From Candidatus Angelobacter sp. (lineage in GTDB: Bacteria > Acidobacteriota > Terriglobia > Terriglobales > Acidobacteriaceae): 32,649 nt of DNA. The notes beneath the pieces are model-generated. The model worked only from the letters and a program-made list of their open reading frames with translations. It had not been told where the DNA came from and made no database searches. A program made the position numbers and the translations under genes. This document shows positions 219-24,389 of this stretch, in pieces. The stretch is taken from positions 1 through 32,649 of the forward strand of contig DATFDA010000139.1 of the NCBI GenBank assembly GCA_035252525.1, in the 5' to 3' direction. How positions within the stretch are numbered: the first letter of the stretch is position 1; each line of letters starts with the position of its first letter.

Positions 219-2785
219 TGTGTTCTTGCGGCAGTGGCTTCAATGTGAGGCGAAGCGGCAATCAGCGGTTTATCCAGCGCTCCGGTGATCTCCCAGTGCG
301 AGCCGCTGTTGCTCAGCTTTAGCTTTGTCTGCATGTCAACCAGGGACACTGTTCCGCTCATATCATAGATGCGGTTTTCTGCTCTGAATTTGCTTGGCAG
401 CACCCGCAGCATTTGTTTATCAATCTCAAGCGCTCCCTGCAGGCTCTGGAACCGCAGAGGCTTGTCTCCGTCCAGCAGCAGGGAATGCGAGACGCCGTTG
501 TTGATCACATATTCCACGCGCCCATTCACGCTGTCGGCCATCTCCTGCGGAGTCGCGCCTTCAAACTTGAGCGCATAGTTCAAGTCGGCCCGTCCGCTCA
601 CCCACGATGTGGCCAGGGCAACATTCGTCTCTTTGGGATCAAGGTGGTCCATTGCCACGCCGTTCGCGCTTCCTGTCGCAGTGAAGCGCGGCCGCGATGT
701 GCTCCAGTCAGCGTGCCACTCGCCTTGCGCGGTTCCGCCTGCAAGTTTGGCATTGATTCGGCTTACCAGCAGCGCCTTGTCGCCAACCTGGACATGTGCC
801 GTGAATTTTTCCAGCGGCAATTGTGCCACGCTGAACTCTCCCACGGACAAAGTGCCGCTGGCGCGAAAATCCGGCAGCTTGCTGGAATCGGAAAAGAAGG
901 GAATGCTCCAGCCCTTGTCGGTGACGCCGAGCAGTTTGCCCAGATCTGTCATTGTCAGCGAATCTGAATGCAGATCAAACTCCAGAGGGCACGGCGGGGC
1001 GGCGCCAGGACAGTTCCACGGAACATTGACTGTTCCTGCAAAGGAAACCGGCGTATGTTCAAACTGGGCCTTGATGTTTGCCAGCACCAGTTCAATTTCG
1101 CTGAGCTGGGCATCGGCTTCAGTGATCACGAGCCGGTCTTTGATCCCGGGAATCCACGATGCCACATTTTGCAGATGCGCTGTGCCGCGCACGGCTGGCG
1201 GAGCAAAGTTGGCCCATGGTCCGCTGATATTCAGGTCAACTACGGCAGACGCCGTGGTGTTGCCAATATCGCCAGAAAAGCCGCTGGCGTGGCCCAGCGC
1301 GAGCAGCCTTTCCAGCGGAACCATTCCTTTCACACCCAGCCAGTAGCCGGTTCCGTCCGCGGTAGCCTGCACTTGCACTGAAGTTGAAGGTCCCATCTGC
1401 ACCGAGAAAGAATCAAATGTGAGCGTGTCATTAGAGCCATTATGTGGCTGCTGCTGCTGTTTGCCTTTCTTCGCAACCGCAGGAGTTGTGCTCTCGGCCG
1501 GGCCAATATGAAACCTCACCGGTGTTACTGCAAACGGTTTTTCTGCTGTGGCCGACTCCAGCAGGAACGCTGAAGTCATTCCCGTGCCGTGCCAATCCCG
1601 TACGCCATTGCGAGAGTGGAATCCGAAAGCCGCATTCAGGTCGCCTGTCGCCGTCAGGTCATCTGGAAGGGTACGGCGGGCGTGCCGCGCAAAGGTGGTA
1701 AGCATGGAGATCGGGATGCGCGTGGCCACCATGGAAAGGTCGTAATCACGGGGCATTTTAGCCGACCAGCGGGCTGTGAGCAGGACGCCGCCACTGCTCA
1801 GCGGAGTGTCACATTTCATCTCCAACGCTTGATGCTGGTAGTCGCCCAGGCAGCGCGTACTCAGCCTGGGCATTTGGTTGCGATTGATGTCGTAACGCCG
1901 GAAATCCCTCAGCTCCGCCGATGCCACAATGTGGAGATTTGTCACCGTTCCTGAAAGCTGTGCGCTTCCGCTCAGCCCGCCTCTCCAGCCGCGGTCTTTG
2001 CCTATCACCAGAGCGGACAATTGACCGAGTTGGCCCTTATCCCAGGCAACCGCAAGCTTGATTGGCATCTGCGGTAAATCGGGTGACCGCCGCAGATCTC
2101 CCTCCAGCCGAACCGTGCCCGTGTCACTCAAATTCATGTCTGTCCGGACCGGCTGACCCTCCAGCCTCACATGCCACACGTCTTCCGCCGCCAGCCAGAA
2201 CGCGAAATCAGTATTGGTGAATGAAAACGGCTTCTTCTCCGGACCCACCTTAAAGTTAATGCGGCCGCCACTGGCTTCAATGTAGGGAAAACGCGGCCGC
2301 CCTTCCGCCTGCCGCTTTGCCGTAGGAGCAGAAGGCACCTGCTCCACTCGCTTGATCAGCGATTCCAGGTTCCAATGGCCGTTGGAGTAAACCAGGTTCA
2401 GGCTGGGAGCGGCTTGATCATCCGTCAGCTTTAGGTTTGCGATCTCCAGCCGCCCGTGCCACAAAGAGGTAAGCCTCAGGTCAGCCGTCACCTTTCCGCA
2501 CATCAGCAGCGGCTCAGCGCTGAAGGCGGGATCATCCATTACTTTGAGGTCGTATATGTCGAATCCCGGACGGGGAAAAACCCGGTATTTGACTTGCCCA
2601 ATCTTCACCTGCCGGCCCAGAGCGCTGCTCAAGGATCCCGCGAGGCTATCGCGAAAGCGTACACCGTTAATGTTGGGCGGCAGGAAAATTGCCAACGCCA
2701 ACAATGCAACGGCAGCGACGATGAACTTCTTCCGGCTGATGGATTTCTCCTGCCTTAGTGCACCAGGTGCAAGGTTCGACGCCAA
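215..2785 (-). CDS. AsmA-family outer-membrane biogenesis protein
   Basis: 856-aa ORF with a single N-terminal TM (KKFIVAAVALLALAIFLPP). This is followed by an AsmA-like N-terminal region (RFRDSLAGSLSSALGRQVKIGQVKYRVFPRPGFDIYDLKV...LEIANLKL) and a long beta-rich body. The listed start is TTG at 2785, which overlaps lepB by 31 nt; the true start is uncertain (see finding). Confidence 0.75.
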   Translation of the reverse strand: MASNLAPGALRQEKSISRKKFIVAAVALLALAIFLPPNINGVRFRDSLAGSLSSALGRQVKIGQVKYRVFPRPGFDIYDLKVMDDPAFSAEPLLMCGKVTADLRLTSLWHGRLEIANLKLTDDQAAPSLNLVYSNGHWNLESLIKRVEQVPSAPTAKRQAEGRPRFPYIEASGGRINFKVGPEKKPFSFTNTDFAFWLAAEDVWHVRLEGQPVRTDMNLSDTGTVRLEGDLRRSPDLPQMPIKLAVAWDKGQLGQLSALVIGKDRGWRGGLSGSAQLSGTVTNLHIVASAELRDFRRYDINRNQMPRLSTRCLGDYQHQALEMKCDTPLSSGGVLLTARWSAKMPRDYDLSMVATRIPISMLTTFARHARRTLPDDLTATGDLNAAFGFHSRNGVRDWHGTGMTSAFLLESATAEKPFAVTPVRFHIGPAESTTPAVAKKGKQQQQPHNGSNDTLTFDSFSVQMGPSTSVQVQATADGTGYWLGVKGMVPLERLLALGHASGFSGDIGNTTASAVVDLNISGPWANFAPPAVRGTAHLQNVASWIPGIKDRLVITEADAQLSEIELVLANIKAQFEHTPVSFAGTVNVPWNCPGAAPPCPLEFDLHSDSLTMTDLGKLLGVTDKGWSIPFFSDSSKLPDFRASGTLSVGEFSVAQLPLEKFTAHVQVGDKALLVSRINAKLAGGTAQGEWHADWSTSRPRFTATGSANGVAMDHLDPKETNVALATSWVSGRADLNYALKFEGATPQEMADSVNGRVEYVINNGVSHSLLLDGDKPLRFQSLQGALEIDKQMLRVLPSKFRAENRIYDMSGTVSLVDMQTKLKLSNSGSHWEITGALDKPLIAASPHIEATAARTQ

Positions 2786-3525
2786 CGCGTCATGCCGATA
2801 AAGTGTGTGGCCGTATAAATGAAAGATCCAATGCGCTGTGGAATCGTTCGCGGCTCAAAATCTTCTGCGGTTTGATTCAAAGACCACGCAATAAACAACG
2901 GGCCACCCATGATGTTTTCCTTGGGAACGAATCCCCAAAAGCGGCTGTCATAGCTTACGTCGCGATTGTCTCCCATGGCGAAGTAATGTCCCGCTGGAAC
3001 AACAATGTCCGGGCCGTCGCGATACTTGTGCATGCTCTGCGCCCATTCCGGAGTAGCTCTGCCATAAGGGCTGGCTGACGGGAAATCATCACGATACTCA
3101 TCCGGCGCATGGTATGGGCTGTTCACGTCGTAATAAACATACGGTTCCTTCTGCTCCACGCCGTTGAGAAAGACGTTGCGGTCCACCAGGTGAATATGAT
3201 CGCCGGGAACGCCGACGATCCGCTTGACCAGGTACAGCCCAGGTTCCGCAGGTGATACAAAAACAGCGATATCGCCGCGATGGATGTTGCGGTATGGCAT
3301 CAGCGGACCCGGGAACCCTTTTCCGGTTGGAGTAAGCCGGTCAACAAAGACGTGATCACCAATTAAGAGCGTCCGCTCCATGGACGATGAAGGTATCTCA
3401 AAATGCTGAATGATGAATGTAATAATGAAGAGACCGGAGACAAAGACCGCAGCGAATCCGGCAATGGATTCGGCCAGCGTCTCCTTCTGTTTTTCCTGTT
3501 TCGAACTCTTGGTCTGGTCCGTCAA
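2755..3525 (-). CDS. lepB: signal peptidase I (copy 1 of 3)
   Basis: Carries the Ser box IPSSSMERTLL, the Lys box VKRIVGVPGD, GDNRDVSYDSRFWGFVP, and an N-terminal TM (FAAVFVSGLFIITFII). The track ORF extends to 3777 but would overlap copy 2 by 227 nt. Alignment with copy 2 (KETLAESIAG vs KETLPESIAS) and an AGGA 8 nt upstream favour TTG at 3525..3523. Confidence 0.85.
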   Translation of the reverse strand: MTDQTKSSKQEKQKETLAESIAGFAAVFVSGLFIITFIIQHFEIPSSSMERTLLIGDHVFVDRLTPTGKGFPGPLMPYRNIHRGDIAVFVSPAEPGLYLVKRIVGVPGDHIHLVDRNVFLNGVEQKEPYVYYDVNSPYHAPDEYRDDFPSASPYGRATPEWAQSMHKYRDGPDIVVPAGHYFAMGDNRDVSYDSRFWGFVPKENIMGGPLFIAWSLNQTAEDFEPRTIPQRIGSFIYTATHFIGMTRWRRTLHLVH

Positions 3526-3550
3526 TTCTGCTGTCCTGAATGAAAAAGTA

Positions 3551-4339
3551 TCAATGCACCATGTGGAACATCCGGTTCCAGCGGGTTTCAGTAAAGAAAT
3601 GCGTGATGATGTGGAGAATGAATCCTGCTCGATCAGATAATGAAGTGTGCTGGTACTCGTCAGAGGGAGTCTCGAAAGACCAGTAAATGAACAGGGGTCT
3701 TCCAATGATGTTTGCCTGCGGTATAAATCCCCAGAAGCGGCTGTCCAGGCTGTTTGCCCGGTTGTCTCCCATTCCAAAATAGCTGTCCTTGGGGACCACT
3801 AATTCTCCATTTTGAATGTTGCTGCGCAAGATCATGGGCCATTCAGAAGCCACTCCAGGAACTCCGGCCGCTGGATATTTGGGAAAGTCATCACGGTAGG
3901 CCATGTAGAAACCATGGTCCGGATTCAGGTACGGTTCGTTCTGCGCCTGCCCGTTCACGAACAGCTTCCCACTTTCCAAGTGAATCCTATCTCCCGGTAC
4001 AGCAACAATCCGTTTAACCACATACATTCCTGGCTCGGTTGGATGAAGAAAGACAATTACCTCACCCCGGTGCGGCGAGTGATAAGGCATTAGCGGCCCA
4101 ACATATCCCGCTTGGGGAGCGGGCGTAAGACGGTCAACAAACACGTGGTCGCCTATCAGCAACGTGTCTTCCATGGAGCCTGAAGGTATTTCGAACGCCT
4201 GCACAACAAAAGTGATAATGAAAAGCCCGGCCACAAAAACAGACGCGATGCTTGCGATTGATTCTGGCAGCGTTTCTTTGTGCTTTTCCGGTGTTTTTTG
4301 TTTCCTGGCTTTAGCTTGCAAACGGGCTTCCCTGGTCAA
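3551..4339 (-). CDS. lepB: signal peptidase I (copy 2 of 3)
   Basis: 262 aa with IPSGSMEDTLL, VKRIVAVPGD, GDNRANSLDSRFWGFIP and an N-terminal TM (IASVFVAGLFIITFVV). Confidence 0.9.
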   Translation of the reverse strand: MTREARLQAKARKQKTPEKHKETLPESIASIASVFVAGLFIITFVVQAFEIPSGSMEDTLLIGDHVFVDRLTPAPQAGYVGPLMPYHSPHRGEVIVFLHPTEPGMYVVKRIVAVPGDRIHLESGKLFVNGQAQNEPYLNPDHGFYMAYRDDFPKYPAAGVPGVASEWPMILRSNIQNGELVVPKDSYFGMGDNRANSLDSRFWGFIPQANIIGRPLFIYWSFETPSDEYQHTSLSDRAGFILHIITHFFTETRWNRMFHMVH

Positions 4340-4348
4340 GAGTTTGAC

Positions 4349-5215
4349 TCACAGTACGCGATGGAAGATGCGGTCCCACCGGGCCAACTGAAGAAAATGG
4401 GCCAGCAGTTGTCCTGAATCAAACAGTTTACCATTGGAGCCGTGTCCGGCCCCGGAAGCGTTGCCATCATTGATGGAGAGATAGATTACCAGCGGGCGAC
4501 CCATGATATTGCCCCGAGGGACAAAGCCCCAGTAGCGGCTGTCCAAGCTCTGATCACGATTGTCGCCCATCACAAAATACTCGCCCCTGGGTACCACCAG
4601 CTCACCATGGTCCATATAGCGGCCCATTTCGCGAATCCAGCGCCGGTTCACATCCAGAGGCAGGCGTTCACGCAGGGGAAAATTGTCGCGATACACCTCA
4701 AAATTCGGCATGGAGTGGATGGCGTAACTTTCATCCAGGCGCACGCCATTGACGAACACGGCCTTGTTTTGCAGGTGAATCCTGTCCCCCGGCAACCCGA
4801 TTACCCGTTTGACAAAATACTGCGTAGGGTCCACAGGATAGTGAAACACCACCACGTCTCCGCGTTGGATGGGACGATAGGGAAGTAGCCAGTGCCAGAT
4901 GCCGCCGCCGTCGGCAAAGTGCATCTTGTCCGCCAGAAGAAAATCGCCGATCAGCAGCGTATTTTCCATGGATTCTGAAGGGACGCGAAATGCCTGGATG
5001 ACGAAAGTGATCATGAACACCACAATCACCAGCACTGAAATTGCAAATTGAATTCCCTGCGGGCCGTGTGCAGGAGGAAATTCCTGAACCGGTGTTGTCT
5101 GTGGCGTTTCCAGGGTAGGCGTGGGTTCAGTGGCGGCCTGCTCCATCAAATTGTCCGATTCAATCGCGGGCTGTGGAGCAGCGGCCTGTTCGTGGCCTTG
5201 GAGATTGTCGTTCAT
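4349..5215 (-). CDS. lepB: signal peptidase I (copy 3 of 3, longer N-terminal tail)
   Basis: 288 aa with VPSESMENTLL, VKRVIGLPGD, GDNRDQSLDSRYWGFVP and a TM (FAISVLVIVVFMITFVI). The ATG at 5215..5213 overlaps the rnc stop (ATGA). Confidence 0.9.
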   Translation of the reverse strand: MNDNLQGHEQAAAPQPAIESDNLMEQAATEPTPTLETPQTTPVQEFPPAHGPQGIQFAISVLVIVVFMITFVIQAFRVPSESMENTLLIGDFLLADKMHFADGGGIWHWLLPYRPIQRGDVVVFHYPVDPTQYFVKRVIGLPGDRIHLQNKAVFVNGVRLDESYAIHSMPNFEVYRDNFPLRERLPLDVNRRWIREMGRYMDHGELVVPRGEYFVMGDNRDQSLDSRYWGFVPRGNIMGRPLVIYLSINDGNASGAGHGSNGKLFDSGQLLAHFLQLARWDRIFHRVL

Positions 5216-5973
5216 ACCGGCTCCACCGTCTGTCCGCGCAGATACTCCAGTGCCTGCTTGGCCGCGAGCTGCTCCGCTTTTTTCTTAGTCGCGCCTTCAG
5301 CCCGCGATACGTATTCCGGTTTAGGATGGCCCTGGGAATAGATCCGTGCTTCCACCGTGAACGTTTTACGATGGTCCGGCCCCTCTTCCTTTACTGTGGC
5401 ATAGACCGGCTGCAATCGTCCCGAGGACTGCAACAATTCCTGAAGCGCTGATTTGTAATCCGCCAGGCTGAATTCATTCGAGCTTTCCGTGCTTACGCGG
5501 TCCAACTCCGGTAAGAGAATCTCGTCGATGATGAAGGACCTCGTCTTGTCCATTCCTGCGTCCAGGTACATGGCTGCAATCACCGCTTCCAGCGCGTCAG
5601 AAAGGAGAGTGGATTTTGTGCGGCCTCCGCTGCGTTCTTCTCCGCGGCCCAGGCGGAGATACTTCCCGAGTTGCAGGCGGCTGGCCACACTTACCAGATG
5701 TCCGGCGCTCACAAGATGAGCTTTTAATTTTGAGAGCTGGCCTTCATGAAAGCCGGGAAAGCGCTCAAACAGCAACTGGCTCGTGACCATTCCAAGTACC
5801 GCGTCGCCCAGAAATTCAAACTGCTCGTTATCGCGGACTTCCACGCCGGTTTCCGCCGCGCCTTTGGACTCCTCGTGCGCATGCGAGCTGTGAGTCAGAG
5901 CCCGCTGTAACAGCTCCGGACGGCTGAACTGGTGCCCCAATACGTTTTGCAAATCGGCGAGATCGGGATTCAT
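5212..5973 (-). CDS. rnc: ribonuclease III
   Basis: Carries the RNase III signature (ALTHSSHA...NEQFEFLGDAVLG) and a C-terminal dsRBD (DYKSALQELLQ...GPDHRKTF...GATKKKAEQLAAKQAL). The track starts at GTG 5979. ATG at 5973 gives MNPDLADLQNVLGHQF, a typical RNase III N-terminus. Confidence 0.92.
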   Translation of the reverse strand: MNPDLADLQNVLGHQFSRPELLQRALTHSSHAHEESKGAAETGVEVRDNEQFEFLGDAVLGMVTSQLLFERFPGFHEGQLSKLKAHLVSAGHLVSVASRLQLGKYLRLGRGEERSGGRTKSTLLSDALEAVIAAMYLDAGMDKTRSFIIDEILLPELDRVSTESSNEFSLADYKSALQELLQSSGRLQPVYATVKEEGPDHRKTFTVEARIYSQGHPKPEYVSRAEGATKKKAEQLAAKQALEYLRGQTVEPV

Positions 5974-5978
5974 ATCCA

Positions 5979-6839
5979 CTACTGCGGAGGTTCGGCTCCT
6001 GTTTCATCCACCGAACGCCGGCCGCGGCCCGCCAGACCGGAAAGACGGTCAAATTCGATTTCGGCAAGCCGCTGCAATTGCGGGTGGGAACTCGCAAGCT
6101 GTAGCGCCTGCTGCACCGAACTTAGAGCTGCTGCATATTTTTTTCGATGGTCCTGGGCCAGGGCCAGGTGGTACCAGATATAAGGATCAGGTGTAATTTG
6201 CTTGAGGACAGCCGCACGGGTAAGGTCTCGTTCGGCCGATGCGTCATCCCCGGTCTTTAAAGCCATCAATCCCAGGGCAGAGTACGCCATGGACTGCAAC
6301 GTTGTGCGGTAAACAGCCGCTTGCTGGGGTGAGGCCGCCGCGGGCGGAACAAAGCCGCTTCCTACGCTGTCAATCGCGTGATTTGCGGCTTGTCGGATCT
6401 CATCCATTTTTTTTGCCTTGTCAGCGTCGTTGGCTCCCAGACCGTCAGCCAGCACTGTGGCGGTTAGCACAAGGGCCACAGCGTGGTGGGGATTCAGTGC
6501 CAGGACCTTCTGCGCCATGGCGAGCGTGCCGGCAGGATTGTTTTCCAGTTCATAGGCCCGCATGGCCTTTGAGTAGAGATACTGGCGCAATTCGCTGTCA
6601 GGGTACTTCGCTGCAAAATTGTTTGCTGCCATCTCCCCCGCATTAGCGCCAGCGATTGCATAGGCAGCGTTGAAATCCTCGCGCTCCTGCTGGCTTTTAG
6701 CGGGTGGATGCAGCGCTGCCCGTTCCGGGGGCGTCACGCCTCTGCCATCGCCAGCCTGCGCTTCGATCCGTCCCGGCGCGAACGCCAGAATGATGGCAGC
6801 GAACAGAAAAAGCGCCGGTATTGTGAGGCATGGTTTCAT
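5979..6839 (-). CDS. secreted TPR-like repeat protein (paralogue A)
   Basis: 286 aa with a signal peptide (MKPCLTIPALFLFAAIILAFAPGRIEAQA) and a helical-repeat body. It shares long blocks with 6906..7745 (FAAKYPDSELRQYLYSKAM, KVLALNP..ALVLTATVL, PDPYIWYHLALAQDH). Confidence 0.75.
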   Translation of the reverse strand: MKPCLTIPALFLFAAIILAFAPGRIEAQAGDGRGVTPPERAALHPPAKSQQEREDFNAAYAIAGANAGEMAANNFAAKYPDSELRQYLYSKAMRAYELENNPAGTLAMAQKVLALNPHHAVALVLTATVLADGLGANDADKAKKMDEIRQAANHAIDSVGSGFVPPAAASPQQAAVYRTTLQSMAYSALGLMALKTGDDASAERDLTRAAVLKQITPDPYIWYHLALAQDHRKKYAAALSSVQQALQLASSHPQLQRLAEIEFDRLSGLAGRGRRSVDETGAEPPQ

Positions 6840-6905
6840 CAGGAATTAAGTAACTTGCTGTGCAGCGTGACGCCTAGGCTGCGGATGTGCTTCTTCCAAA
6901 ATACT

Positions 6906-7745
6906 TCATTTATGCGGAGACTGTGAACTATTTGGCTGTGCCGCCTGAGTACCAGTCAGTTTCATCAGCCTGTCACGTTCGCCTTGGGCCAGCTTGTCCA
7001 GATCAGGATTTGAACCGGTATAACGAAGCGCCTGGTTCACAGATGCCAGCGCTGCCGCATATTTACTCTGGTGGTCCTGGGACAACGCCAGGTGGTACCA
7101 GATATATGGATCAGGCTGGGTCTTGTTCAGATCAGCCGCGGACTGCAACTCCTTTTCTGCGCTGCTGTCATCGCCCGTCTTTAAATCCATGATTCCGATC
7201 GCGGAATGCGCCATGGAAAGCAACGTGCTTTTATAGGCGGTCACTTGTTCGGGAGTTGCGCTGACAGGAGGTGTGAATGAGCTATCCACGCTCTCCAGAG
7301 CCCGGCTGGCATTTTTCTTGATTTCAGCTATCTTTTGCTGCCGGTCCGGATCGGAATCGCTCAGACTGTCAGAGAGCACCGTCGCAGTCAGAACCAGAGC
7401 GATTGGATTATCGGGATCGAGCGCAAGCACCTTTTCGCCCATCGTCAGCATTTTGTCTGGCTGGTTCTCATTCTGGTATTCGTGCATCGCCTTAGAGTAA
7501 AGATAGGCGGTTAACTCACTCTGCGGGTACCTGGCAGCGAAGTCATTGGCGGCTTTCTCCATGGCAGCGCCGCCGGTTATCGCGTATGCAGTGTTGTAAT
7601 CTTTGTATTCCGCTTGCGATTTTGCCTGTGGCGGCCGTTTGACGGCGGGTTTCTGCTGTGCATGCGTTGTGGGTGACTGCTGAAGAGACCAGCCCACAAC
7701 AGCCAATGCGCAAACCATGAACAGTGATGTACCCAGTTTCTTCAT
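6906..7745 (-). CDS. secreted TPR-like repeat protein (paralogue B)
   Basis: 279 aa with a signal peptide (MKKLGTSLFMVCALAVVGWSLQ). It is a paralogue of 5979..6839 and even shares a 20-nt DNA string, gccaggtggtaccagatata, near 6165..6184 and 7088..7107. Confidence 0.75.
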   Translation of the reverse strand: MKKLGTSLFMVCALAVVGWSLQQSPTTHAQQKPAVKRPPQAKSQAEYKDYNTAYAITGGAAMEKAANDFAARYPQSELTAYLYSKAMHEYQNENQPDKMLTMGEKVLALDPDNPIALVLTATVLSDSLSDSDPDRQQKIAEIKKNASRALESVDSSFTPPVSATPEQVTAYKSTLLSMAHSAIGIMDLKTGDDSSAEKELQSAADLNKTQPDPYIWYHLALSQDHQSKYAAALASVNQALRYTGSNPDLDKLAQGERDRLMKLTGTQAAQPNSSQSPHK

Positions 7746-7752
7746 TCAATTC

Positions 7753-9177
7753 CTATTGCTGCTTTGGCCTGGCAGCAGGCTGGTAAGGAGCTTCAATGCC
7801 TTTTTCGGCTGCGGCGCGGGTATCAGCCGCGGGATCGCCTGCCGCCAGCGCGGCGCGGTAATGCTGCAAGGCAGCGTCGCGGTTTTCCTGGAGGTCGTTG
7901 ATCCTCCCCAGATATATGTGGCTCCAGGCCAGGGTTCGCGGATCACGCGCTGACTGCACCGCCTGTTCAAAGTCAAAACGGGCCTCATCCATTTTGCCGT
8001 CCAGCGTGGCAATCCGCGCCAGCAGAAAGACGGCGCGTCCTGGTTCATCACCGCCGTGGTTGTGCTGCAACACCTGGCTGGCAAGTTTCTGGGCCCCTTC
8101 CTTGTCACCCGAGGCGAATTTCTGCTCTGCTTCGTTGAGCAGGCTGGCCTGGACAATGGCCTTTGCCGGGCTGATGACCTCCGGGTCCGCTTCGGCGGCG
8201 AACGTTACTTCGCGCGCGCGCTTGCGCTCGTGGTCCAGGTCAAGGCTGTGCAACAGGTCGCCGTAAACCGTCCTCATGCCGCCTGAGCCCTTTTCAAAGT
8301 TGGCCAGCGCGTCATAAAAATACTGCGTCAGCACAAAGCCCTGCTCCACCGAGTGTTCTACAAAGGCCTCCCGAGCGCGCTCATTGCTTTTGGGAATCGT
8401 TAGTCTGGCCTCAATGGCCCGGATCAGGCACTCGTTTACCATCAATGCAATGTCCTGCTTGAAGGAGCGAGAAAGCGGCGCGCTGCGTATATCCAGCAGA
8501 ATCGGTTCCAACCTTTTCAAACTGGTTCCGTGGGAAGCCGCCAGAGGATCGAGCACAAAGTGAAGATAGGTGTGGCGGATCTCGTTGCTGGGAATCTTGC
8601 CCTGCTTGTCCGGTGAATACACAACGTAATAGTCGTTGCCGTAATTGCGCGCCTCCACCAGCGCGGGCGAAAGCTGAGGCTCCAGAAACACTGCGAACCT
8701 CTGGCCGGGATAGGTGGAGAACGGCAGTTTCAAAAATACGTCAGTCTGGTTGATCAACGCCGAGACGGGATCGTGCAGCTCCTTGACCAGAGTTTCATAG
8801 CTGCCCTGGTGCTTCTGCCAAAGCTTGTGTATCTGAGCCGCCTGATAGTAGTTCTTGAGCAGTGGAATCACGCCCAGCACGTAGGACGCGTCGGGAGGCA
8901 TATCGCCTTCCGGAATCTCAGTGGTAAAAGCAGGAGGCTCACTCAGTTCCAGGGCCAGGGAGACGTACTGTGAAATACCGTTCGTGCCATTGGCCGGCTG
9001 ATGCTCATTCCAGAATTGGCAGATGGCATCACGTGAACGCGCAGCTTCCGGCGACTTCTGCGTCACCGCCAGAAGATCAGCCTTTACTGCCTGGCGAAGC
9101 TCCAGTGAGTCTGCTAACCCGGAATCATACCCGCAACTATTCAGCGCTGAAAACAAAGTGAAGAATGATTCGCTCAC
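7753..9177 (-). CDS. hypothetical protein with C-terminal TPR repeats (probably secreted; real start likely upstream near 9276)
   Basis: 474-aa ORF from GTG 9177. The C-terminus has TPR-like repeats (GDKEGAQKLASQVL, MDEARFDFEQAV, RDAALQHYRAALAAGD). The frame stays open upstream and encodes a signal peptide (see finding). Confidence 0.7.
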   Translation of the reverse strand: MSESFFTLFSALNSCGYDSGLADSLELRQAVKADLLAVTQKSPEAARSRDAICQFWNEHQPANGTNGISQYVSLALELSEPPAFTTEIPEGDMPPDASYVLGVIPLLKNYYQAAQIHKLWQKHQGSYETLVKELHDPVSALINQTDVFLKLPFSTYPGQRFAVFLEPQLSPALVEARNYGNDYYVVYSPDKQGKIPSNEIRHTYLHFVLDPLAASHGTSLKRLEPILLDIRSAPLSRSFKQDIALMVNECLIRAIEARLTIPKSNERAREAFVEHSVEQGFVLTQYFYDALANFEKGSGGMRTVYGDLLHSLDLDHERKRAREVTFAAEADPEVISPAKAIVQASLLNEAEQKFASGDKEGAQKLASQVLQHNHGGDEPGRAVFLLARIATLDGKMDEARFDFEQAVQSARDPRTLAWSHIYLGRINDLQENRDAALQHYRAALAAGDPAADTRAAAEKGIEAPYQPAARPKQQ

Positions 9178-9312
9178 TTCAAGCTGCGCCCGTGTTTCCT
9201 GGGCAATTGAGAGACGGGAGCCCGCGATCGCAAACAGCAGCAGGGAGAAGAAAAAGAATGAAAGTTTCGGCCTCAGGATTCCTCCAGAATGTGCGGGAAA
9301 CTCAAGTTTAGG

Positions 9313-9353
9313 CCAGAAAAACCAAGAGGGTCAAACCGGCTCAGGTTTGACCC
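9313..9353 (-). terminator. intrinsic terminator after the anti-sigma gene
   Basis: Perfect 10-bp stem (GGGTCAAACC at 9328..9337 pairing with GGTTTGACCC at 9344..9353) and a 6-nt loop. On the minus strand it is followed by TCTTGGTTTTTCTGG. Confidence 0.7.
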
Positions 9354-9385
9354 TTGATTTTTGACGCCCCGAAAGCTGGCGTTCG

Positions 9386-10042
9386 CTATCCTTTCACGTT
9401 TACATGGGAAAACGACATGATGGCTTTCCCCGGTACCGCCTTGCCAAAGGACTGCGCCGGGGCAAACACAGTAAAGAGAAGAGCCCGGTTCAGTTCCATC
9501 CGGACCTGCGCGTTGTCCTGCCCGGAGATGATGCGGTAAGCCTCCACGCGGCCATCCACCCCGACATAAGTCTCAATCACCACCGGCGAATCCAGATTTA
9601 ACTGGCTGTCAACATCTGACATTTCCAGCCGCGGCGGTGTGTAAAGAAGGGTGGGAACATCATCGTCCGCGCTGACTCTTGCCGGAACAAAGAACCCGAT
9701 GACTGCCGCAAAGAAAATCATGGCAGCAAGAACGCCTGCGGTAGCGGGGAACATCACCGCATGGGCCGCGTTTTGCAGCCGCACCCAGTACGCGCTTAGC
9801 CAGTTCTGTCGCCGACGTGATTTTTCACTGGCAATGACTATGCGCAGCTTCAATGCCAGCTCCGGAGGAGCCTGCTTACGGCCCAGTCCCGCTACTATTT
9901 CTCGCGTTTTCTCAAGCGATGCATATTCAGACTGGCACTTTGCACACTCATGTAAGTGGCCGGACACCTGATGCATCTCCGTACCTGTAACAGCTCCGTC
10001 AAGGTACAGGGAGAAAAGCGGCTTTGCCTCTGTACATCTCAT
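9386..10042 (-). CDS. anti-sigma factor (zf-HC2 type, single-pass membrane)
   Basis: The N-terminus MRCTEAKPLFSLYLDGAVTGTEMHQVSGHLHECAKCQSEY matches the H-x3-C-x2-C zinc anti-sigma motif. It has a central TM (PATAGVLAAMIFFAAVIGFFVP) and lies 2 nt downstream of the ECF sigma gene. Confidence 0.85.
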   Translation of the reverse strand: MRCTEAKPLFSLYLDGAVTGTEMHQVSGHLHECAKCQSEYASLEKTREIVAGLGRKQAPPELALKLRIVIASEKSRRRQNWLSAYWVRLQNAAHAVMFPATAGVLAAMIFFAAVIGFFVPARVSADDDVPTLLYTPPRLEMSDVDSQLNLDSPVVIETYVGVDGRVEAYRIISGQDNAQVRMELNRALLFTVFAPAQSFGKAVPGKAIMSFSHVNVKG

Positions 10043-18381: not shown

Positions 18382-18897
18382 CTAGTGGCCGCGCTGGGCC
18401 ATGACAATTTTGGCTGTGGTTATTGCCTGCCCAACGTGCCGCTGGCTATGATCCGCCACGTGCACCAGCAAGCCGGCAACGGTTGTGGGCAACTGCTTTT
18501 TCCCAACCTTGCGGCTTTCCTCAAGCTCAGCCGGTGAGAACGCCCGAATACGCCGCGCGCTCTTGGTAAATCCCACTACCAGTTCCGCCAGGAGCTCATT
18601 TCGCGTTGCTCCGGGAGAAAGCTCATCTTTTAGCGCCGCAAGCTGTTCGCTGGTAAGCTGCGCGCCTTCAGCATAGGTCAGCAGGCGGTCAGCGCTGCGG
18701 GTGATGTGGCGCAGGTGAAATGCCACGGGGGCAATGCCTCCGGGACGCGCGTTCAATTCCTGGTCGCTCAGGCCATCGCACCAGCGCTCCAGGTCTTCGC
18801 GCGCCAACTCCAGTGCGTGCAGCACCGCGCGCTGCACAGCAGGCACTTCCGTCAGTGTGCCGCGCAGCCATGGCTCGGGCTGTTCAATCTTGTTCAT
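18382..18897 (-). CDS. DinB-family (DinB_2-like) four-helix-bundle protein
   Basis: 171 aa. WLRGTL...LHALELAREDLERW...IAPVAFHLRHI...ADHSQRHVGQAI shows the His triad spacing typical of the DinB superfamily. GGAAGG lies 7 nt upstream of the ATG. Confidence 0.75.
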   Translation of the reverse strand: MNKIEQPEPWLRGTLTEVPAVQRAVLHALELAREDLERWCDGLSDQELNARPGGIAPVAFHLRHITRSADRLLTYAEGAQLTSEQLAALKDELSPGATRNELLAELVVGFTKSARRIRAFSPAELEESRKVGKKQLPTTVAGLLVHVADHSQRHVGQAITTAKIVMAQRGH

Positions 18898-19236: not shown

Positions 19237-21060
19237 ATGAACGTCAAATTATCTCCCCGTTATCTCAAAATCGTATCTGTGCTGGGTGCTGCTTTAGTAT
19301 TTCTGTCACTGAGTGCCCTGGCCCAGAGCAACACAGTCACATTTCTGCGTACTGACCAGCCCGGAACCTGGTTTCAGAACGTTGCCGGGCCAATTGCAGG
19401 CACGCAGTCGCTTGCAGTGGCCACGCCGGGTGTGCAAGTTTTATTCAACGGAGATTCCAGCACAGTACACACGGTAACCAGCCTGATCTTCCCGACCGGC
19501 GCGGCAGGCATGCCCTTTGACTCGGGCACAGTGCAGAATGCGACCCAGGTCTCCGTCACGCTGACCACACCGGGTTTGTATGTCTTCACCTGCAAAATCC
19601 ATCCTTATATGTTTGCCGCCGTAATCGTGGATGACCCGGCAACGCAGGGACTGGACCTGGGCGAGAACGTCAGCCTTGTGACCGGCGTAAGTGTCCCCAC
19701 GAGCAGTGATCTAGCCACTCGCCTGCTTCGGACCTTCTTTATCGCCACCAACCCCGATAACTGGCAGGACCACACCAAGGCGACCTGGCACATAACTTAT
19801 CCCAGCGTTCCGGTGCGGATCACCGGTGGCGCTGTGGTGAATCTGGCGGACGTGCTGAATGCCCGTTACGGCAATGACTTGCCGATCGCCAAGCCGTTCA
19901 ATCCCGCAACGCCGGGCGTGGGTGAAGTGTGGGTGGATACCCAATTCGAATTGACGGCGCACAAAGACAAACCCGGAACCACCACCGCCGTTAGCACCAC
20001 AGACTGGAAGCCAATTCGCAAAGTAGCCCTTCCGCAGATTGACATGAACAATCCACACAACATGTGGACGGATCGCGACCAGAAGCTGATTTATCAAACC
20101 ATGTGGTTTGACAATCGCATGGCCGTGTTTGACCGTATTACCGGCAAGCTGGTGCGAGACGTGACTGTCGGGCCTGCGCCGTCACACGTGATGACCCGCA
20201 CGGATACTGACCATCTTCACGTCGCGCTCGACGGAGAAGACAGCCCGTTCGCCGTGGTTCAGCTTACGCCGGGAGGCGCCGCCATTGAGCGTCGCATCGA
20301 TATCGAGGGCGGACATCCCCACGCGCACTGGATGGGGCACGACGGCAAGAGCATGGTGACTCCGAACACGTTTGACAACACATCCACAATTTTTGATTTC
20401 AACACGGATGCTGTGCGCGCGCTGGTGCCCACCGGCAATCTGCCCATCGCCACGGGTATGATGCCCGACGATAGTAAGTACTATCTGGATAATTTCCTCG
20501 ATAGCAGCATGCAGGTGATTGATACTCACACTGGAGCCACCATCAAAACCTTCAGCCTGCTGGCGAACTATGATCCCATCAGCGGAGCTATAACCGGACC
20601 CGTAGGTGCGCTTCCCATTCAGACTCCTGTAAGTCCGGATGGCACAGCCGTAGTGACAGCCAACATCCTGACCGATACGATTACCATCATCGACACCAAA
20701 ACAGATACCCTGGTTGCGGCCCTGCCCTGCGATGCCGGATGCCATGGCGTGCAGTTCGGCGCCAAGCGTGGAGGCGGGTACTATGCCTATGTCAGCAGCC
20801 AGTTCTCCAATACCGTTGAGGTGGTGGATATCGACCCCAACCACGACGGCAATGTAGCTGAAGCCAAAGTTGTTGGTCGTATTCTGCTGAACGCGCTTCC
20901 TTCAACCCACACCGATGACCAGATTGTCGGCTTGGCCGGGATGGGCGGACAGGGTGTGCTCGCAGTGCCGGTGGTTTACAACGGATGGGTGCAGAACCTG
21001 CCGCAGAACTTCAAAGCCAAATTGACACCCGCGCAGCGAAATCCGTTCCCCGCGAAGTAG
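19237..21060 (+). CDS. secreted cupredoxin (type-1 Cu, amicyanin-like) / YVTN-type beta-propeller fusion protein
   Basis: GGAGG lies 8 nt before ATG 19237, and the signal peptide is MNVKLSPRYLKIVSVLGAALVFLSLSALAQ. Candidate cupredoxin ligands are His (19468..19470) and C-K-I-H-P-Y-M (19591..19611). The C-terminal ~340 aa show ~45-aa periodic P-x-x-x-x-x-(P)DG blade motifs. Confidence 0.8.
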   Translation: MNVKLSPRYLKIVSVLGAALVFLSLSALAQSNTVTFLRTDQPGTWFQNVAGPIAGTQSLAVATPGVQVLFNGDSSTVHTVTSLIFPTGAAGMPFDSGTVQNATQVSVTLTTPGLYVFTCKIHPYMFAAVIVDDPATQGLDLGENVSLVTGVSVPTSSDLATRLLRTFFIATNPDNWQDHTKATWHITYPSVPVRITGGAVVNLADVLNARYGNDLPIAKPFNPATPGVGEVWVDTQFELTAHKDKPGTTTAVSTTDWKPIRKVALPQIDMNNPHNMWTDRDQKLIYQTMWFDNRMAVFDRITGKLVRDVTVGPAPSHVMTRTDTDHLHVALDGEDSPFAVVQLTPGGAAIERRIDIEGGHPHAHWMGHDGKSMVTPNTFDNTSTIFDFNTDAVRALVPTGNLPIATGMMPDDSKYYLDNFLDSSMQVIDTHTGATIKTFSLLANYDPISGAITGPVGALPIQTPVSPDGTAVVTANILTDTITIIDTKTDTLVAALPCDAGCHGVQFGAKRGGGYYAYVSSQFSNTVEVVDIDPNHDGNVAEAKVVGRILLNALPSTHTDDQIVGLAGMGGQGVLAVPVVYNGWVQNLPQNFKAKLTPAQRNPFPAK

Positions 21061-21146: not shown

Positions 21147-21728
21147 TTAACGTGCTGCCGCTTTTTCAGGGGTTGCAGCGCGGCTGACGGCGGCCTCCAC
21201 CTGAACGTGAACAGTGCATTCAGGGTCGCCCTTCAACATGCAGCGGGACTCCACAATGCTGACTGTCTTTCCGTAATGCCTGGCAGCGCCCTTCACAATT
21301 CCTTTCAGCAGCGCGCACATCTTGCGCCTGGAATCGTAGGAGATGGTCACACGGTCGTCGGCCAGGCGCCGCACCACCAACTGGGGCGGCGCCACTCCGG
21401 GATGGAAGCGCACGATTTTGTGAATGGTGTCCTCTGTGTTGCAGAGGAAATCCACCAACGTCCAATCCGGCTTTACCAGGAAGGAATACTGGCGAATGAG
21501 ATCCGGAGCAATGAAATCGCCAAAATCTTCGAGGATCGTGTTCACGTCCATGCCCGTCATCTTGCAAGCGGTAGTCACCAAAGAGAGAAGGTCATGATCA
21601 GGATAGACTGAAGCCGCCAAATACAGATTTCCCTTAAGTCCGGCTTTTTCCTGCAAAATGTCCCAGGTCTCGGCATCGAACTTGGTTTCTACATACTTCT
21701 TGAGCTCTGAAAATATCAAGCCATGCAT
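21147..21728 (-). CDS. H-NOX (heme NO/O2-binding, HNOB) domain protein, stand-alone
   Basis: 193 aa. The N-terminus MHGLIFSELKKYVETKFDAETWDILQEKAGL parallels known H-NOX proteins. A proximal-His candidate is H103 (TIHKIV), P110 is present, and the heme-propionate motif Y-x-S-x-R is present as YDSRR. Confidence 0.88.
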   Translation of the reverse strand: MHGLIFSELKKYVETKFDAETWDILQEKAGLKGNLYLAASVYPDHDLLSLVTTACKMTGMDVNTILEDFGDFIAPDLIRQYSFLVKPDWTLVDFLCNTEDTIHKIVRFHPGVAPPQLVVRRLADDRVTISYDSRRKMCALLKGIVKGAARHYGKTVSIVESRCMLKGDPECTVHVQVEAAVSRAATPEKAAAR

Positions 21729-22124: not shown

Positions 22125-24389
22125 TCACTCCACGGTGATGCTGATTGTCTGCTTGAAAATCACTCCCTTAGTGTCTTTGGCTTGAACGGTGAGGCGGCGC
22201 ACTCCGCTGGCCATTGCTATTGATGTATCCAAAGAACCTCCACTGACGGTGAACACCGCCGTGCCATCCACATAAATCTGGATGAACGAAACGGTTGCGG
22301 AATCGCGCGTAGCCGCCTGCACATGGACCGGAGAGCTCACAGATGCGCCATTCGCCGGCGAGCAGATGGTCACAGAAGGCGACGTCGATCCGGGGTTGCA
22401 AGTGCCTGGGCTGGGAGTTGGTGTAGGAGTTGGTGTAGGAGTAGGAGTGGGAGTGGGCGAACTTCCGCTTACGTTTACGGAGATAGTCTGCTTGAAAATG
22501 TTCCCGGCGCTGTCCTTCGCCTGGATAGTGAGCCGGTGCGTGCCCACGGAAGCTGAGATGGAGGTATTAAGAGACCCTCCGCTGGTGGTGAATACAGCTT
22601 TGCCATCCAGATAAATCTGAATAAACGAAACGGAAACGGAGTCTCGCGTTGTCGCCTGCACCTGCATCGGCGAACTTACAGTAGCACCGTTTGTGGGTGA
22701 GCAAATGGTAACTGACGGCGAAGTTGGGCCCGGGCTGCACGCGCCGGGGGTTGGCGTTGGAGTCGGCGAGGGAGTTGGGGTGGGTGTTGGACTCGGGGTC
22801 GGTGTTGGGCTTGGCGATGGCGTCGGGCTTGGAGTTGGCGTCGGAGTCGGGGTAGGAGGCGGAGAAGTGCTGTCTACAGTGATTGAGATAGTCTGCTTGA
22901 AGATGTTTCCTGCCGCATCCTTCGCTTGCACAGTGAGCCGGTGCGCGCCCGCGGACATTGGGATGGAGGTATTCAGAGTACCTCCGCTTTGGGTTACAGC
23001 AGCTTTGCCGTCAACATAGGCCTGAATAAAAGAAACAGTTGTGCTGTCTGTAGTTCCCGCACTCACGTCCACCGGAGAACTTACAGTTGCGTTATTGGCA
23101 GGGTTACAGATTGTCACCGAAGGTGAAGCGGTGCTGAGTGTGCAAGGCGCAGAGGAACTCTTGGTCAGGTAGAACTCCAATTGCGTGGTCAGGCTGTCAC
23201 TCGCTGTCTCCGTTTGGGATGAATTATTCCAGCCGCTGCCAGAGGCGCTTAGGCTATAGCTGGCTGGAGGCACAGAGAGGCTGTAAGTACCGTCAGACGC
23301 GGTTACGGTAGAAGCGCTTCCTGCCGTTACGGTCACGCCGCCCGCAGCCGCACAGGTGGATTGATTTCTGATTTTGCCGCTGATCTTTGAGCTGCCTGTG
23401 TTCGGGTTGGGATTATGGTAGGGAACTGTGAACTGCTGCGACGCGCCCGTCATGTACTGGTTGAGAAATGGAGAGTACGTCTGTACAGAGATGGTGTTGG
23501 AAGCCGGATGAAAGGTGAGAATTTCCAGCCAGCCGTCGCCGCCATTGGGAAAATCCTGCATATCGGCGAAAATCTGGTTGACCAAATTCCCGTTATCGCC
23601 TACATCTTCGCGATGGGAGACGGAGCCGCCCGTAAAATGGCCGTTCAGAACCATGATCACATTCGAGTGCTTTCTCAACCGCTGCCACATCTGCTGTCCG
23701 TTGGCGTTGCCTGGTCCCATGTCCTGAGTGTCGCAAGTGTCCTCGCGCAGCCCTACCGTTCTTAGATAAGAATGTGTGACTACAATGGCTTCCTTGTCCG
23801 GATTGGCTGACAGGATAGATTCCGCCCAGTCCAGCGCGGCGCTACGGGGCCGGAATTCCAGAATCACGAAGAGATACTGCTTACCGTTGATGGTAAGAAT
23901 GCCGTAGAAATTTTCGTTGCTGCCGGAAGGATAGCTTCCTTTGTAGTACGCTTTGCCGGAATAGCGCGCAGGACCGAACCACTGATTGAATCCGGTCACA
24001 CTGCGGCTTTTGGGATTGGCGCCGTCATAGTCATGGTTCCCGATTGCCAGCATGTAAGGGACGCCGGCATTGTCCAGAACGCGAATGGCTGCATCGGCAT
24101 TCTGTTGCTGGGCGGTTTGCGCGCCATCGTTGACGATATCGCCCACCCCCAGCACCATCTGAATGTTGAGTCCATCCCGGTTCGCAGCAATCCAATTGGT
24201 CTGGCTGTTCATCACCTGGGGAAAAAATTGGGCCTCATTCTGAGTGTCAGGCAAGACGACGATGGAAAAATCCTGAGCTGTAAGGACATGGGTTAAATCC
24301 AGCAGAAACACGAATAGCAGACACAACGGGTACAAACGACGAAGCGGCAACATCCGGAACCTCAGAGCAAGGATGCTTGCGAACGCCAC
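22125..24389 (-). CDS. secreted calcineurin-like metallophosphoesterase with CarboxypepD_reg-like and three Ig-like C-terminal domains
   Basis: It has a signal peptide region (LPLRRLYPLCLLFVFLLDLTHVLTAQD). Metallophosphoesterase motifs are VVLPDTQ, GVGDIVNDG, AIGNHD, VVTHSY and LNGHFTGG. These are followed by three ~90-aa repeats separated by (PT)n linkers. The start may be the internal ATG at 24353. Confidence 0.82.
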   Translation of the reverse strand: MAFASILALRFRMLPLRRLYPLCLLFVFLLDLTHVLTAQDFSIVVLPDTQNEAQFFPQVMNSQTNWIAANRDGLNIQMVLGVGDIVNDGAQTAQQQNADAAIRVLDNAGVPYMLAIGNHDYDGANPKSRSVTGFNQWFGPARYSGKAYYKGSYPSGSNENFYGILTINGKQYLFVILEFRPRSAALDWAESILSANPDKEAIVVTHSYLRTVGLREDTCDTQDMGPGNANGQQMWQRLRKHSNVIMVLNGHFTGGSVSHREDVGDNGNLVNQIFADMQDFPNGGDGWLEILTFHPASNTISVQTYSPFLNQYMTGASQQFTVPYHNPNPNTGSSKISGKIRNQSTCAAAGGVTVTAGSASTVTASDGTYSLSVPPASYSLSASGSGWNNSSQTETASDSLTTQLEFYLTKSSSAPCTLSTASPSVTICNPANNATVSSPVDVSAGTTDSTTVSFIQAYVDGKAAVTQSGGTLNTSIPMSAGAHRLTVQAKDAAGNIFKQTISITVDSTSPPPTPTPTPTPSPTPSPSPTPTPSPTPTPTPSPTPTPTPGACSPGPTSPSVTICSPTNGATVSSPMQVQATTRDSVSVSFIQIYLDGKAVFTTSGGSLNTSISASVGTHRLTIQAKDSAGNIFKQTISVNVSGSSPTPTPTPTPTPTPTPSPGTCNPGSTSPSVTICSPANGASVSSPVHVQAATRDSATVSFIQIYVDGTAVFTVSGGSLDTSIAMASGVRRLTVQAKDTKGVIFKQTISITVE
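22128..23144 (-). repeat. three tandem ~270-nt coding repeats (Ig-like domains) separated by PT-linker microsatellite-like tracts
   Basis: The repeat units are 22875..23144, 22470..22739 and 22128..22400. Their translations all read C..SPSVTIC.P.N.A.VSSP..V.A.T.DS..VSFIQ.YVDG.A....SGG.L.TSI....G..RLT.QAKD..G.IFKQTIS..V. The linkers at 22740..22874 and 22401..22469 are GGNGTN-type hexamer runs. Confidence 0.9.

Follow-up and report, generated by a model that had tools for sequence, protein, structure and literature searches.

We consider a gene on the forward strand of a 32,649-nucleotide stretch of DNA from Candidatus Angelobacter sp. (GenBank assembly GCA_035252525.1, contig DATFDA010000139.1), the whole of which we call the window. 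The gene encodes a secreted protein that places a type-1 copper (T1Cu) cupredoxin domain and a structured insert in front of a beta-propeller whose hub is predicted to be lined by conserved histidines. An earlier reading of the sequence (the original prediction) had described an amicyanin-type cupredoxin fused to a His-lined propeller in an inverted NosZ-like architecture, and had suggested an undescribed periplasmic redox enzyme next to a sensor of nitric oxide (NO) or O2. All the coordinates and residues of that description are correct when checked against the sequence. Numbered from the ATG at 19237, which has a GGAGG ribosome-binding site 9 nt 5' of it, the residues then called H285, H328, H371-379 and H514 are H274, H317, H360-368 and H503. 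The features of the gene are as follows.

19237..21060, + strand, whole gene, an open reading frame (ORF) with the stop codon (21058..21060) included: secreted cupredoxin-insert-propeller protein of 607 amino acids (aa)
19237..19323, + strand, Sec-type signal peptide, residues 1-29, read from the sequence, with predicted cleavage between ALA and QS (...SALA/QS)
19327..19635, + strand, type-1 copper cupredoxin domain, residues 31-133 (pseudoazurin profile match; beta-sandwich strands in the AlphaFold2 model)
19468..19470, + strand, H78, upstream T1Cu ligand in STVHTV (98% conserved in 102 sequences)
19591..19611, + strand, T1Cu ligand loop C119-K-I-H122-P-Y-M125, C-x2-H-x2-M (98-99% conserved)
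19636..19911, + strand, conserved insert domain, residues 134-225 (predicted local distance difference test, pLDDT, 92-95; helices 158-170 and 203-211; many invariant residues)
19912..21057, + strand, seven-bladed YVTN/lactonase-type beta-propeller, residues 226-607 (Pfam YNCE; 1l0q; strand pattern of the model)
20056..20058, + strand, H274 (NNPHNMW), start of the innermost strand of blade 2 (99% conserved)
20185..20187, + strand, H317 (PSHVMT), innermost strand of blade 3 (99% conserved)
20320..20328, + strand, H362-A-H364 (HPHAHWM), innermost strand of blade 4 (99% and 98% conserved)
20728..20745, + strand, C498-D-A-G-C502-H503, blade 7, with the hub residue H503 (99% conserved) after a conserved Cys pair

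The protein is predicted to be exported to the periplasm. The Sec-type signal peptide holds up, no twin-arginine motif is found in it, and essentially all homologues have a hydrophobic N-terminus. The domain that follows has both the ligand set and the fold of a type-1 copper protein, and copper binding itself is predicted. Its profile matches pseudoazurin (PDB accession code: 2ux6) at 1.2e-5, and it also matches the C-terminal cupredoxins of a Thermus nitrite reductase (6hbe) and, weakly (E 0.028), the pendant domain of the archaeal laccase Nmar_1354 (9cck). The four ligands H78, C119, H122 and M125 are conserved at 98-99%. The complete, conserved T1Cu site in front of the propeller thus stands as originally described, and together with Sec export it supports, at the level of sequence, the claim of a periplasmic redox protein. 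The amicyanin type stands in part. The C-x2-H-x2-M spacing of the loop is that of amicyanin and is found as well in the aligned 6hbe cupredoxin (CSIHPYM); the likeness is confined to this spacing, since the domain scores 15.6 bits against the 110-bit cutoff of the amicyanin model TIGR02657 and is equally close to pseudoazurin.

The AlphaFold2 model, built on 54 homologues (pLDDT 91; predicted template-modelling score 0.89), has a beta-sandwich at 31-133, the structured insert at 134-225 and seven four-stranded blades, of which blade 1 is closed by the C-terminal strand. Six blades had been recognised originally; the model shows seven. The propeller scores 32.1 bits on Pfam YNCE (PF21783; cutoff 27.1 bits) and has the character of a YVTN/lactonase seven-blade propeller. 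Its best solved relative is an archaeal S-layer YVTN propeller (PDB accession code: 1L0Q), found at 6.5e-19 by sequence and at 3.5e-19 by Foldseek. Library searches give only a weak Pfam match to YncE/lactonase propellers and weak matches to pseudoazurin and amicyanin.

The next question is "which of the histidines are kept?" To answer it we use an alignment of 102 family members of 36-100% identity, drawn from bacteria and archaea and from both species genomes and 50%-identity cluster representatives. H274, H317, H362, H364 and H503 of the propeller are conserved at 98-99%, and the other ten histidines at 2-79%. The His set proposed earlier therefore survives in these five residues and not in the whole HPHAHWMGH run (H360, 35%; H368, 68%), nor in the H328 of the ATG numbering (79%). 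In the model each of the five is residue one, two or three of an innermost strand (blade 2, 3, 4 or 7), at the position taken by Pro-x-Gly in the YVTN repeat when aligned to 1l0q, so that the claim of conserved His at the P-x-G position is confirmed. Conserved methionines (M276, M319, M366 and M408, 87-94%) follow two residues further along the same strands. Because the T1Cu ligands and the five hub His are both conserved at this level, the pattern is more than chance. From the strand positions and from an alignment to NosZ we infer that the five His are placed at the hub, and the ligand set would then lie on one side of it, on blades 7, 2, 3 and 4. It is firm that the protein is exported and conserved and that it combines a T1Cu site with a propeller whose hub is lined by His; the geometry of the hub is predicted from strand positions and alignment.

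Two divergent members lack parts of this set. P0134 lacks only the T1Cu ligands; in P0138 their loss is accompanied by that of H274, H317, H362 and H503. The cysteines that precede H503, C498 and C502, are conserved at 94-96% but absent in some otherwise intact members. Because of these losses they are unlikely to be metal ligands, and a disulfide seems the more likely role.

We turn to the relation of this protein to NosZ and to L-NosZ. A motif list taken from the MiDAS preprint (CX2FCX3HXEM, DXHH/GXHH, PHG, GPLH, EPH) finds all NosZ motifs in four plasmid-derived real NosZ sequences used as a positive control, and a regular-expression search finds none of the NosZ/L-NosZ motifs in the window protein. 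The cupredoxin is N-terminal with T1Cu ligands, where NosZ has the CuA motif CX2FCX3HXEM in a C-terminal cupredoxin, and there are five conserved His in place of the seven (in DXHH, PHG, GPLH and EPH) that bind CuZ. Neither TIGR04244 nor TIGR04246 is listed for the window protein at E up to 1. The L-NosZ model NF052460 gives 39.1 bits against a cutoff of 700 bits, no better than generic YVTN models. Foldseek against the PDB ranks YVTN and lactonase propellers first and has no NosZ in its top 50, and neither nosR nor nosDFYL occurs in the window or among the conserved neighbours of 87 loci. Because the motifs are absent and the L-NosZ score is so far below its cutoff, the protein is, as judged from its sequence, neither NosZ nor L-NosZ.

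A more distant correspondence is found when the family propeller is aligned to NosZ with hhalign. The match is local, with 71% probability and E 3.8e-5, and puts blades 4-7 in register; it is a moderate result, and repeat-protein alignments can slip register. In it H362 falls on the PHG His and H503 on the EPH His, both of them CuZ ligands, while the GPLH His of NosZ lies opposite the invariant A405. A lower-ranked alignment (20% probability, another blade register) sets NNPHNMWTD, which holds H274, against HHPHISMTD of NosZ. H362 and H503 thus appear to occupy structural positions that bind CuZ in NosZ, within a smaller ligand set. What had been called NosZ-like is sound to the extent of these two residues; as membership of NosZ it fails, given the missing motifs, the five His, a T1Cu in place of CuA and the lack of nos accessory genes, and it becomes an analogy only.

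A broader superfamily surrounds the family. It consists of ~470-aa proteins in which the T1Cu cupredoxin is joined directly to the propeller, without the insert of ~90 aa at 134-225. These relatives keep four of the five hub His (NPHN, PAHV, GPHG, GAHG), H364 being the absent one, and they have weak matches to the L-NosZ and NosZ models. In plain phmmer the GPHG blade of one such relative aligns with the same NosZ blade, that of the PHG motif. As a separate observation, in two loci (L095, at 2797..3222, and L096) a ~470-aa short relative is followed directly downstream by a 141-aa membrane-anchored cupredoxin with a CuA-like C-x3-C-x3-H motif (CSVLCGKGH; Pfam Cupredoxin_1 2.7e-19, weak COX2), possibly a second electron-transfer partner in trans.

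The evidence on the direction of electron flow comes from relatives that are linked to laccases. In representatives of 930-1110 aa the N-terminus is a two-domain laccase of the SLAC type (best PDB match 2e-35). Three independent genetic arrangements link the cupredoxin-propeller with a two-domain multicopper oxidase, one that belongs to the small-laccase type of bacteria. There is a complete fusion, with all four copper motif sets in one chain (P0133, P0141 and the metagenomic loci L150 and L156). There is an adjacent gene: in seven metagenomic loci a complete two-domain laccase is encoded on the same strand, 0-24 nt upstream. And there is a split form, found in six metagenomic loci (L145, L148, L155, L163, L165, L167) and also with the archaeal long fusion, which occurs in seven loci and has an upstream gene showing the split in six of them (L071, L075, L078, L079, L081, L086). 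In the split form the upstream protein of ~340-370 aa has only the two domain-1 His motifs (HTHGxH, WPWHDH) and no HCH, and the laccase part of the downstream fusion is confined to the domain-2 motifs (HxHTFHxHAH) together with its own T1-site HCH (HCHVFAHM). Since the two halves hold complementary ligand sets, a complete trinuclear site could be assembled only where the two proteins meet. Fusion or adjacency to a laccase thus suggests the oxidation of a substrate, in the direction opposite to that of NosZ. The window protein has no such module: the two-domain laccase motifs (HxH, HxH, HxxHxH, HCHxxxHxxxxM) are not found in it, and its gene is the stand-alone form, as in most family members.

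Two other identities for the N-terminal extensions were considered. NirK is rejected, with the nitrite reductase model at 28 bits (cutoff 296 bits) against 2e-35 for the SLAC-type laccase, and an identity of the long archaeal forms with MCO4 (9CCK) is not supported, the laccase module matching bacterial small laccases and not 9CCK. One further contig (L085, 2.8 kb), labelled Chitinophagaceae in a metagenome-assembled genome (MAG), carries a protein and a truncated laccase module that closely resemble the Nitrososphaeraceae long form; it is probably misbinned archaeal DNA.

How large is the family, and who carries it? At E below 1e-5 the protein matches more than 2787 clusters made at 90% identity. 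An exhaustive search of cluster representatives gives 4449 matches with an E-value of 1e-3 or lower, 138 of them at 1e-30 or lower, relatives are encoded in at least 550 species-representative genomes, and the family is abundant in soils. Candidatus Angelobacter and other Terriglobia (Acidobacteriota) supply the nearest relatives, of which the best is 98% identical and comes from soil metagenomes. Among the 80 closest species-genome loci, 48 belong to Nitrosomonas/Nitrosospira, Nitrospira or Nitrososphaerales: 27 are from Nitrosomonas/Nitrosospira (including the cultured N. ureae, N. oligotropha, N. marina, N. communis, Nm33, Nm51 and N. multiformis), 13 from Nitrospira and eight from Nitrososphaerales archaea. 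One is from Candidatus Methanoperedens, and the rest are from Acidobacteriota (17), five unclassified Betaproteobacteria/Burkholderiales MAGs, Chloroflexota, Binatia, Rokubacteria, Actinomycetota and the Chitinophagaceae-labelled contig. Ammonia-oxidising bacteria, Nitrospira and soil ammonia-oxidising archaea share the family at 54-77% identity. Some genomes have two paralogues on different contigs (L025 and L069 in Nitrosomonas sp. Nm33, L037 and L052 in an N. ureae MAG, L024 and L028 in a Dehalococcoidia MAG).

RefSeq labels the family "copper oxidase". For the window protein this is a label and not based on domains, because a laccase module is missing from it. Two proteins listed in the N. 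ureae proteome tables are named "Copper oxidase", and either might belong to the family. No characterised family with the cupredoxin-insert-propeller architecture was found in searches of Pfam and other libraries, the PDB, Foldseek and the literature. No functional study of the family was found in the literature either, which has only a passing mention: archaeal "CuZ domain-containing proteins" with two or three N-terminal cupredoxin domains and no function assigned, in a 2026 paper (PMC13464753). These may be the long archaeal form of the family, a likeness that rests on their description and not on compared sequences. The original claim of an undescribed enzyme thus stands in that no characterised family has the architecture, and gives way in that the architecture may already have been mentioned in print.

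On its 5' side the gene has a divergent DinB-family gene (18382..18897, - strand) and on its 3' side a convergent gene with the following assignment.

21147..21728, - strand, stand-alone H-NOX (haem NO/O2-binding) gene, convergent neighbour (Pfam HNOB 8e-35)

Because its flanks are divergent and convergent, the gene is judged to be monocistronic. The H-NOX protein (193 aa) has the YxSxR motif (YDSRR) and a weak V4R-like C-terminus, with no kinase or cyclase gene beside it. The sensor named in the original prediction is therefore real. It is convergent, not co-transcribed, and adjoins the gene in only five closely related loci, all of the Angelobacter clade (the window, L001, L005, L008 and L009), whose outer flanks differ; being clade-specific and convergent, it is weak evidence. 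In L001, which holds a 77%-identical relative, the upstream 9 kb (600..9550) encodes Crp-family, ScdA/hemerythrin and NnrS proteins, ScdA being a protein of iron-centre repair, together with a molybdopterin oxidoreductase with 4Fe-4S and Rieske subunits and a major facilitator superfamily transporter. This looks like a cluster for nitrogen-oxide stress or respiration.

Neighbourhood clustering over 87 loci finds only proteins of unknown function and lineage-specific genes as neighbours. NO-related genes do not recur outside the Angelobacter clade, and none of nir, nor, nos, hao or copper chaperone genes is a neighbour in the 87 loci; cytochrome c genes are neighbours only in Methanoperedens. 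The 32.6-kb window likewise has no nir, nor or nos genes. A block 1-3 kb upstream is common to Nitrosomonas (L034-L077) and Nitrospira (L020-L039) and consists of a DUF5666 protein (~580 aa, Gly-/Asp-rich) and an unannotated acidic putative outer-membrane protein of ~415 aa, which suggests horizontal transfer between nitrifier phyla. Other neighbours are restricted to a lineage: DUF6502 and an unknown 225-aa downstream protein in Nitrosomonas; glycosyltransferase, radical-SAM and DUF547 genes in Nitrospira. An FNR/NnrR-type box (TTGAT-N4-ATCAA, at most two mismatches) lies upstream in 23 of 75 loci and in 101 of 375 control windows, which is no enrichment, and a promoter and terminator scan gives nothing exceeding shuffled expectation.

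The remaining window is of a housekeeping character (signal peptidases, RNase III, an extracytoplasmic function sigma factor, UDP-glucose dehydrogenase, Nramp and an efflux system). Signal peptidase I (S26) is encoded twice within a short distance on the - strand (2755..3777 and 4349..5215), upstream of RNase III. At 22125..24389 (- strand) a 754-aa secreted protein joins a calcineurin-like phosphoesterase to three bacterial Ig (Big_7) domains, and the long Pro-Thr/Pro-Ser linkers between the Big_7 domains give rise to GC-skewed repeats and spurious antisense Gly-Val ORFs.

What, then, might the protein do? That it carries a hub metal site in addition to the T1Cu site we hold with good confidence, and the hub metal is likely to be catalytic and most plausibly copper. 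In the mechanism that we propose, the five His would be the ligands of a catalytic metal centre to one side of the hub, most likely of copper and possibly of more than one ion. A small substrate would be oxidised there, and the electrons would leave singly through the T1Cu domain. In many relatives they would pass from the T1Cu to the laccase T1 site, on to the trinuclear site and to O2, with the laccase fused, encoded by the adjacent upstream gene, or split; in the stand-alone form of the window they would go to a separately encoded acceptor. A path from hub to T1Cu to laccase to O2 is the simplest reading of the laccase arrangements, so that the propeller would be the substrate-oxidising end, and the joint loss of the T1Cu ligands with H274, H317, H362 and H503 in P0138 speaks for a coupling of the two sites. 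Our best reading, a periplasmic copper oxidoreductase of an uncharacterised family that oxidises a small substrate, we put at even chances as a whole; within it, the oxidative direction is somewhat favoured. A nitrogen-oxide substrate, NO or hydroxylamine, is a guess of low confidence, made because ammonia and nitrite oxidisers are prominent among the close homologues and because of the H-NOX/NnrS context in the window's own clade. Further still, the family might be a missing copper enzyme of nitrification, its hub copper oxidising NO to nitrite, as the sought "NO oxidoreductase" of ammonia-oxidising bacteria, or converting hydroxylamine or NO in archaea and comammox Nitrospira, with the T1Cu passing electrons to the respiratory chain or, where a laccase is linked, directly to O2, and with soil Acidobacteriota, the host of the window among them, using it to remove NO; this we consider a long shot.

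Several points weigh against our best reading. Most of the family lacks the laccase linkage, which might instead reflect some other wiring, and no laccase, cytochrome c or nir/nor/nos gene is near the gene in the window. Conserved neighbours in the 87 loci include no nitrogen-cycle or redox partner. The family is patchy, with no Nitrosomonas europaea or Nitrosopumilus among the matches listed (no dedicated absence search was made), and many of its carriers are heterotrophs. The apparently related archaeal proteins show no correlation with N2 or O2 production (PMC13464753), and the lack of correlation with N2 production argues against a core role in that pathway.

The same observations can be read in the reverse direction, as a reductase or "inverted NosZ" in which electrons enter through the T1Cu and a copper cluster at the hub reduces N2O, NO or another oxidant. 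The His at CuZ-equivalent positions, the weak L-NosZ/NosZ matches of the window protein and of the ~470-aa relatives, and the H-NOX, NnrS and ScdA neighbours in one clade would fit this, as would the gap in ammonia oxidisers, where neither N2O reduction nor NO dismutation has yet been assigned an enzyme (PMC13464753). Such a reductase would have to work with five conserved His and not seven, with T1Cu and not CuA, without the NosZ motifs and with no nosDFYL or nosR nearby; it fits poorly with the O2-reducing laccases that are fused or adjacent in relatives, and the archaeal proteins of the literature do not track N2 production (PMC13464753). We consider it unlikely. The conserved His, Met and Trp at the strand starts (HNMW, HVMT, HAHWM, TGMM) bring up another possibility, namely that the substrate is Cu(I), or Mn(II)/Fe(II), held in a His/Met channel and oxidised by the T1Cu, with or without a laccase, in the manner of periplasmic cuprous oxidases. 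These strand starts resemble known Cu(I) sites. The laccase partners, the high copper demand of the nitrifier carriers and the RefSeq name (a label only) agree with metal-ion handling, while the 87 neighbourhoods hold no cop, cus, pco or chaperone genes, known cuprous oxidases need no propeller, and the inner-strand Met may be core packing; the idea appears rather unlikely.

The propeller might also be non-catalytic, a binding or scaffold module or the site of a structural metal such as Zn, in a protein that serves as an anchored electron carrier. Many YVTN propellers are without a cofactor, and relatives have weak matches to the model of the zinc chaperone AztD. Conservation of five His at 98-99% across two domains of life, at 36% overall identity, is against this reading, as are the joint loss in P0138 and the positional match to the catalytic CuZ ligands, and we regard it as very improbable.

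Few copper propeller enzymes are known, NosZ and thiocyanate dehydrogenase, each with environmentally weighty chemistry. If the oxidative reading is true, the family would be a third type, with a different ligand set and electron-transfer domain and probably the opposite electron flow. It is common to organisms whose NO-oxidising, hydroxylamine-oxidising, NO-dismutating and N2O-reducing enzymes remain unassigned (PMC13170337, PMC13464753); in ammonia-oxidising bacteria the NO-oxidising enzyme is unidentified (PMC13170337), and so are the N2O-reducing and NO-dismutating enzymes of ammonia oxidisers (PMC13464753). The protein offers a concrete, clonable candidate with clear predictions. Even without a nitrogen-oxide substrate, the three laccase arrangements define an oxidase system not described before, including one in which the ligands of a trinuclear site are split over two genes.

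We close by comparing the protein with known systems. With NosZ and L-NosZ it shares the periplasmic location, a seven-bladed propeller with innermost-strand His (holding hub copper in NosZ, and predicted to do so here), a cupredoxin-fold electron-transfer domain, and the alignment of the PHG and EPH His with H362 and H503. L-NosZ, like the window family, is reported without the canonical nos accessory genes (PMC13477213). The differences are the inverted domain order, a mononuclear T1Cu instead of the binuclear CuA, five conserved His instead of seven, the extra 90-aa insert, the absence of the NosZ motifs and, probably, an oxidative direction opposite to that of NosZ. With amicyanin and methylamine dehydrogenase it has in common a C-x2-H-x2-M cupredoxin that takes electrons from a seven-bladed propeller enzyme, the parts being fused in the window protein, although its cupredoxin is far from amicyanin by score and as close to pseudoazurin overall. 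The propeller of methylamine dehydrogenase has no hub metal, and its quinone cofactor is on a second subunit.

Thiocyanate dehydrogenase has a NosZ-like propeller with a trinuclear, His-ligated copper site in its hub, oxidises a small anion and passes the electrons to an external carrier, without a fused cupredoxin. For the oxidative reading it is the nearest functional analogue, from which the window protein differs by its fused cupredoxin; it has no match in the PDB sequence and profile searches and none in the Foldseek top 50. The cofactor-less YVTN/lactonase propellers (1L0Q, YncE, 6-phosphogluconolactonase) are the closest matches of the window propeller in sequence and fold, and differ from it in that their strands start with Pro-x-Gly and without His, and in lacking both a cupredoxin and a redox role. 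In the MCO4 laccase Nmar_1354 (PDB accession code: 9CCK), a solved archaeal laccase with a pendant cupredoxin, the two T1Cu sites are 13.5 A apart (PMC11761707). Like the family it has a T1Cu cupredoxin whose ligand loop is short and which is positioned to supply electrons to a two-domain laccase, and it is found in ammonia oxidisers, where it oxidises a nitrification intermediate, NH2OH, with O2 (PMC11761707). Nmar_1354 is without a propeller and the window protein is without a laccase module, and the laccase modules of the long relatives resemble the bacterial small laccases of the SLAC type.

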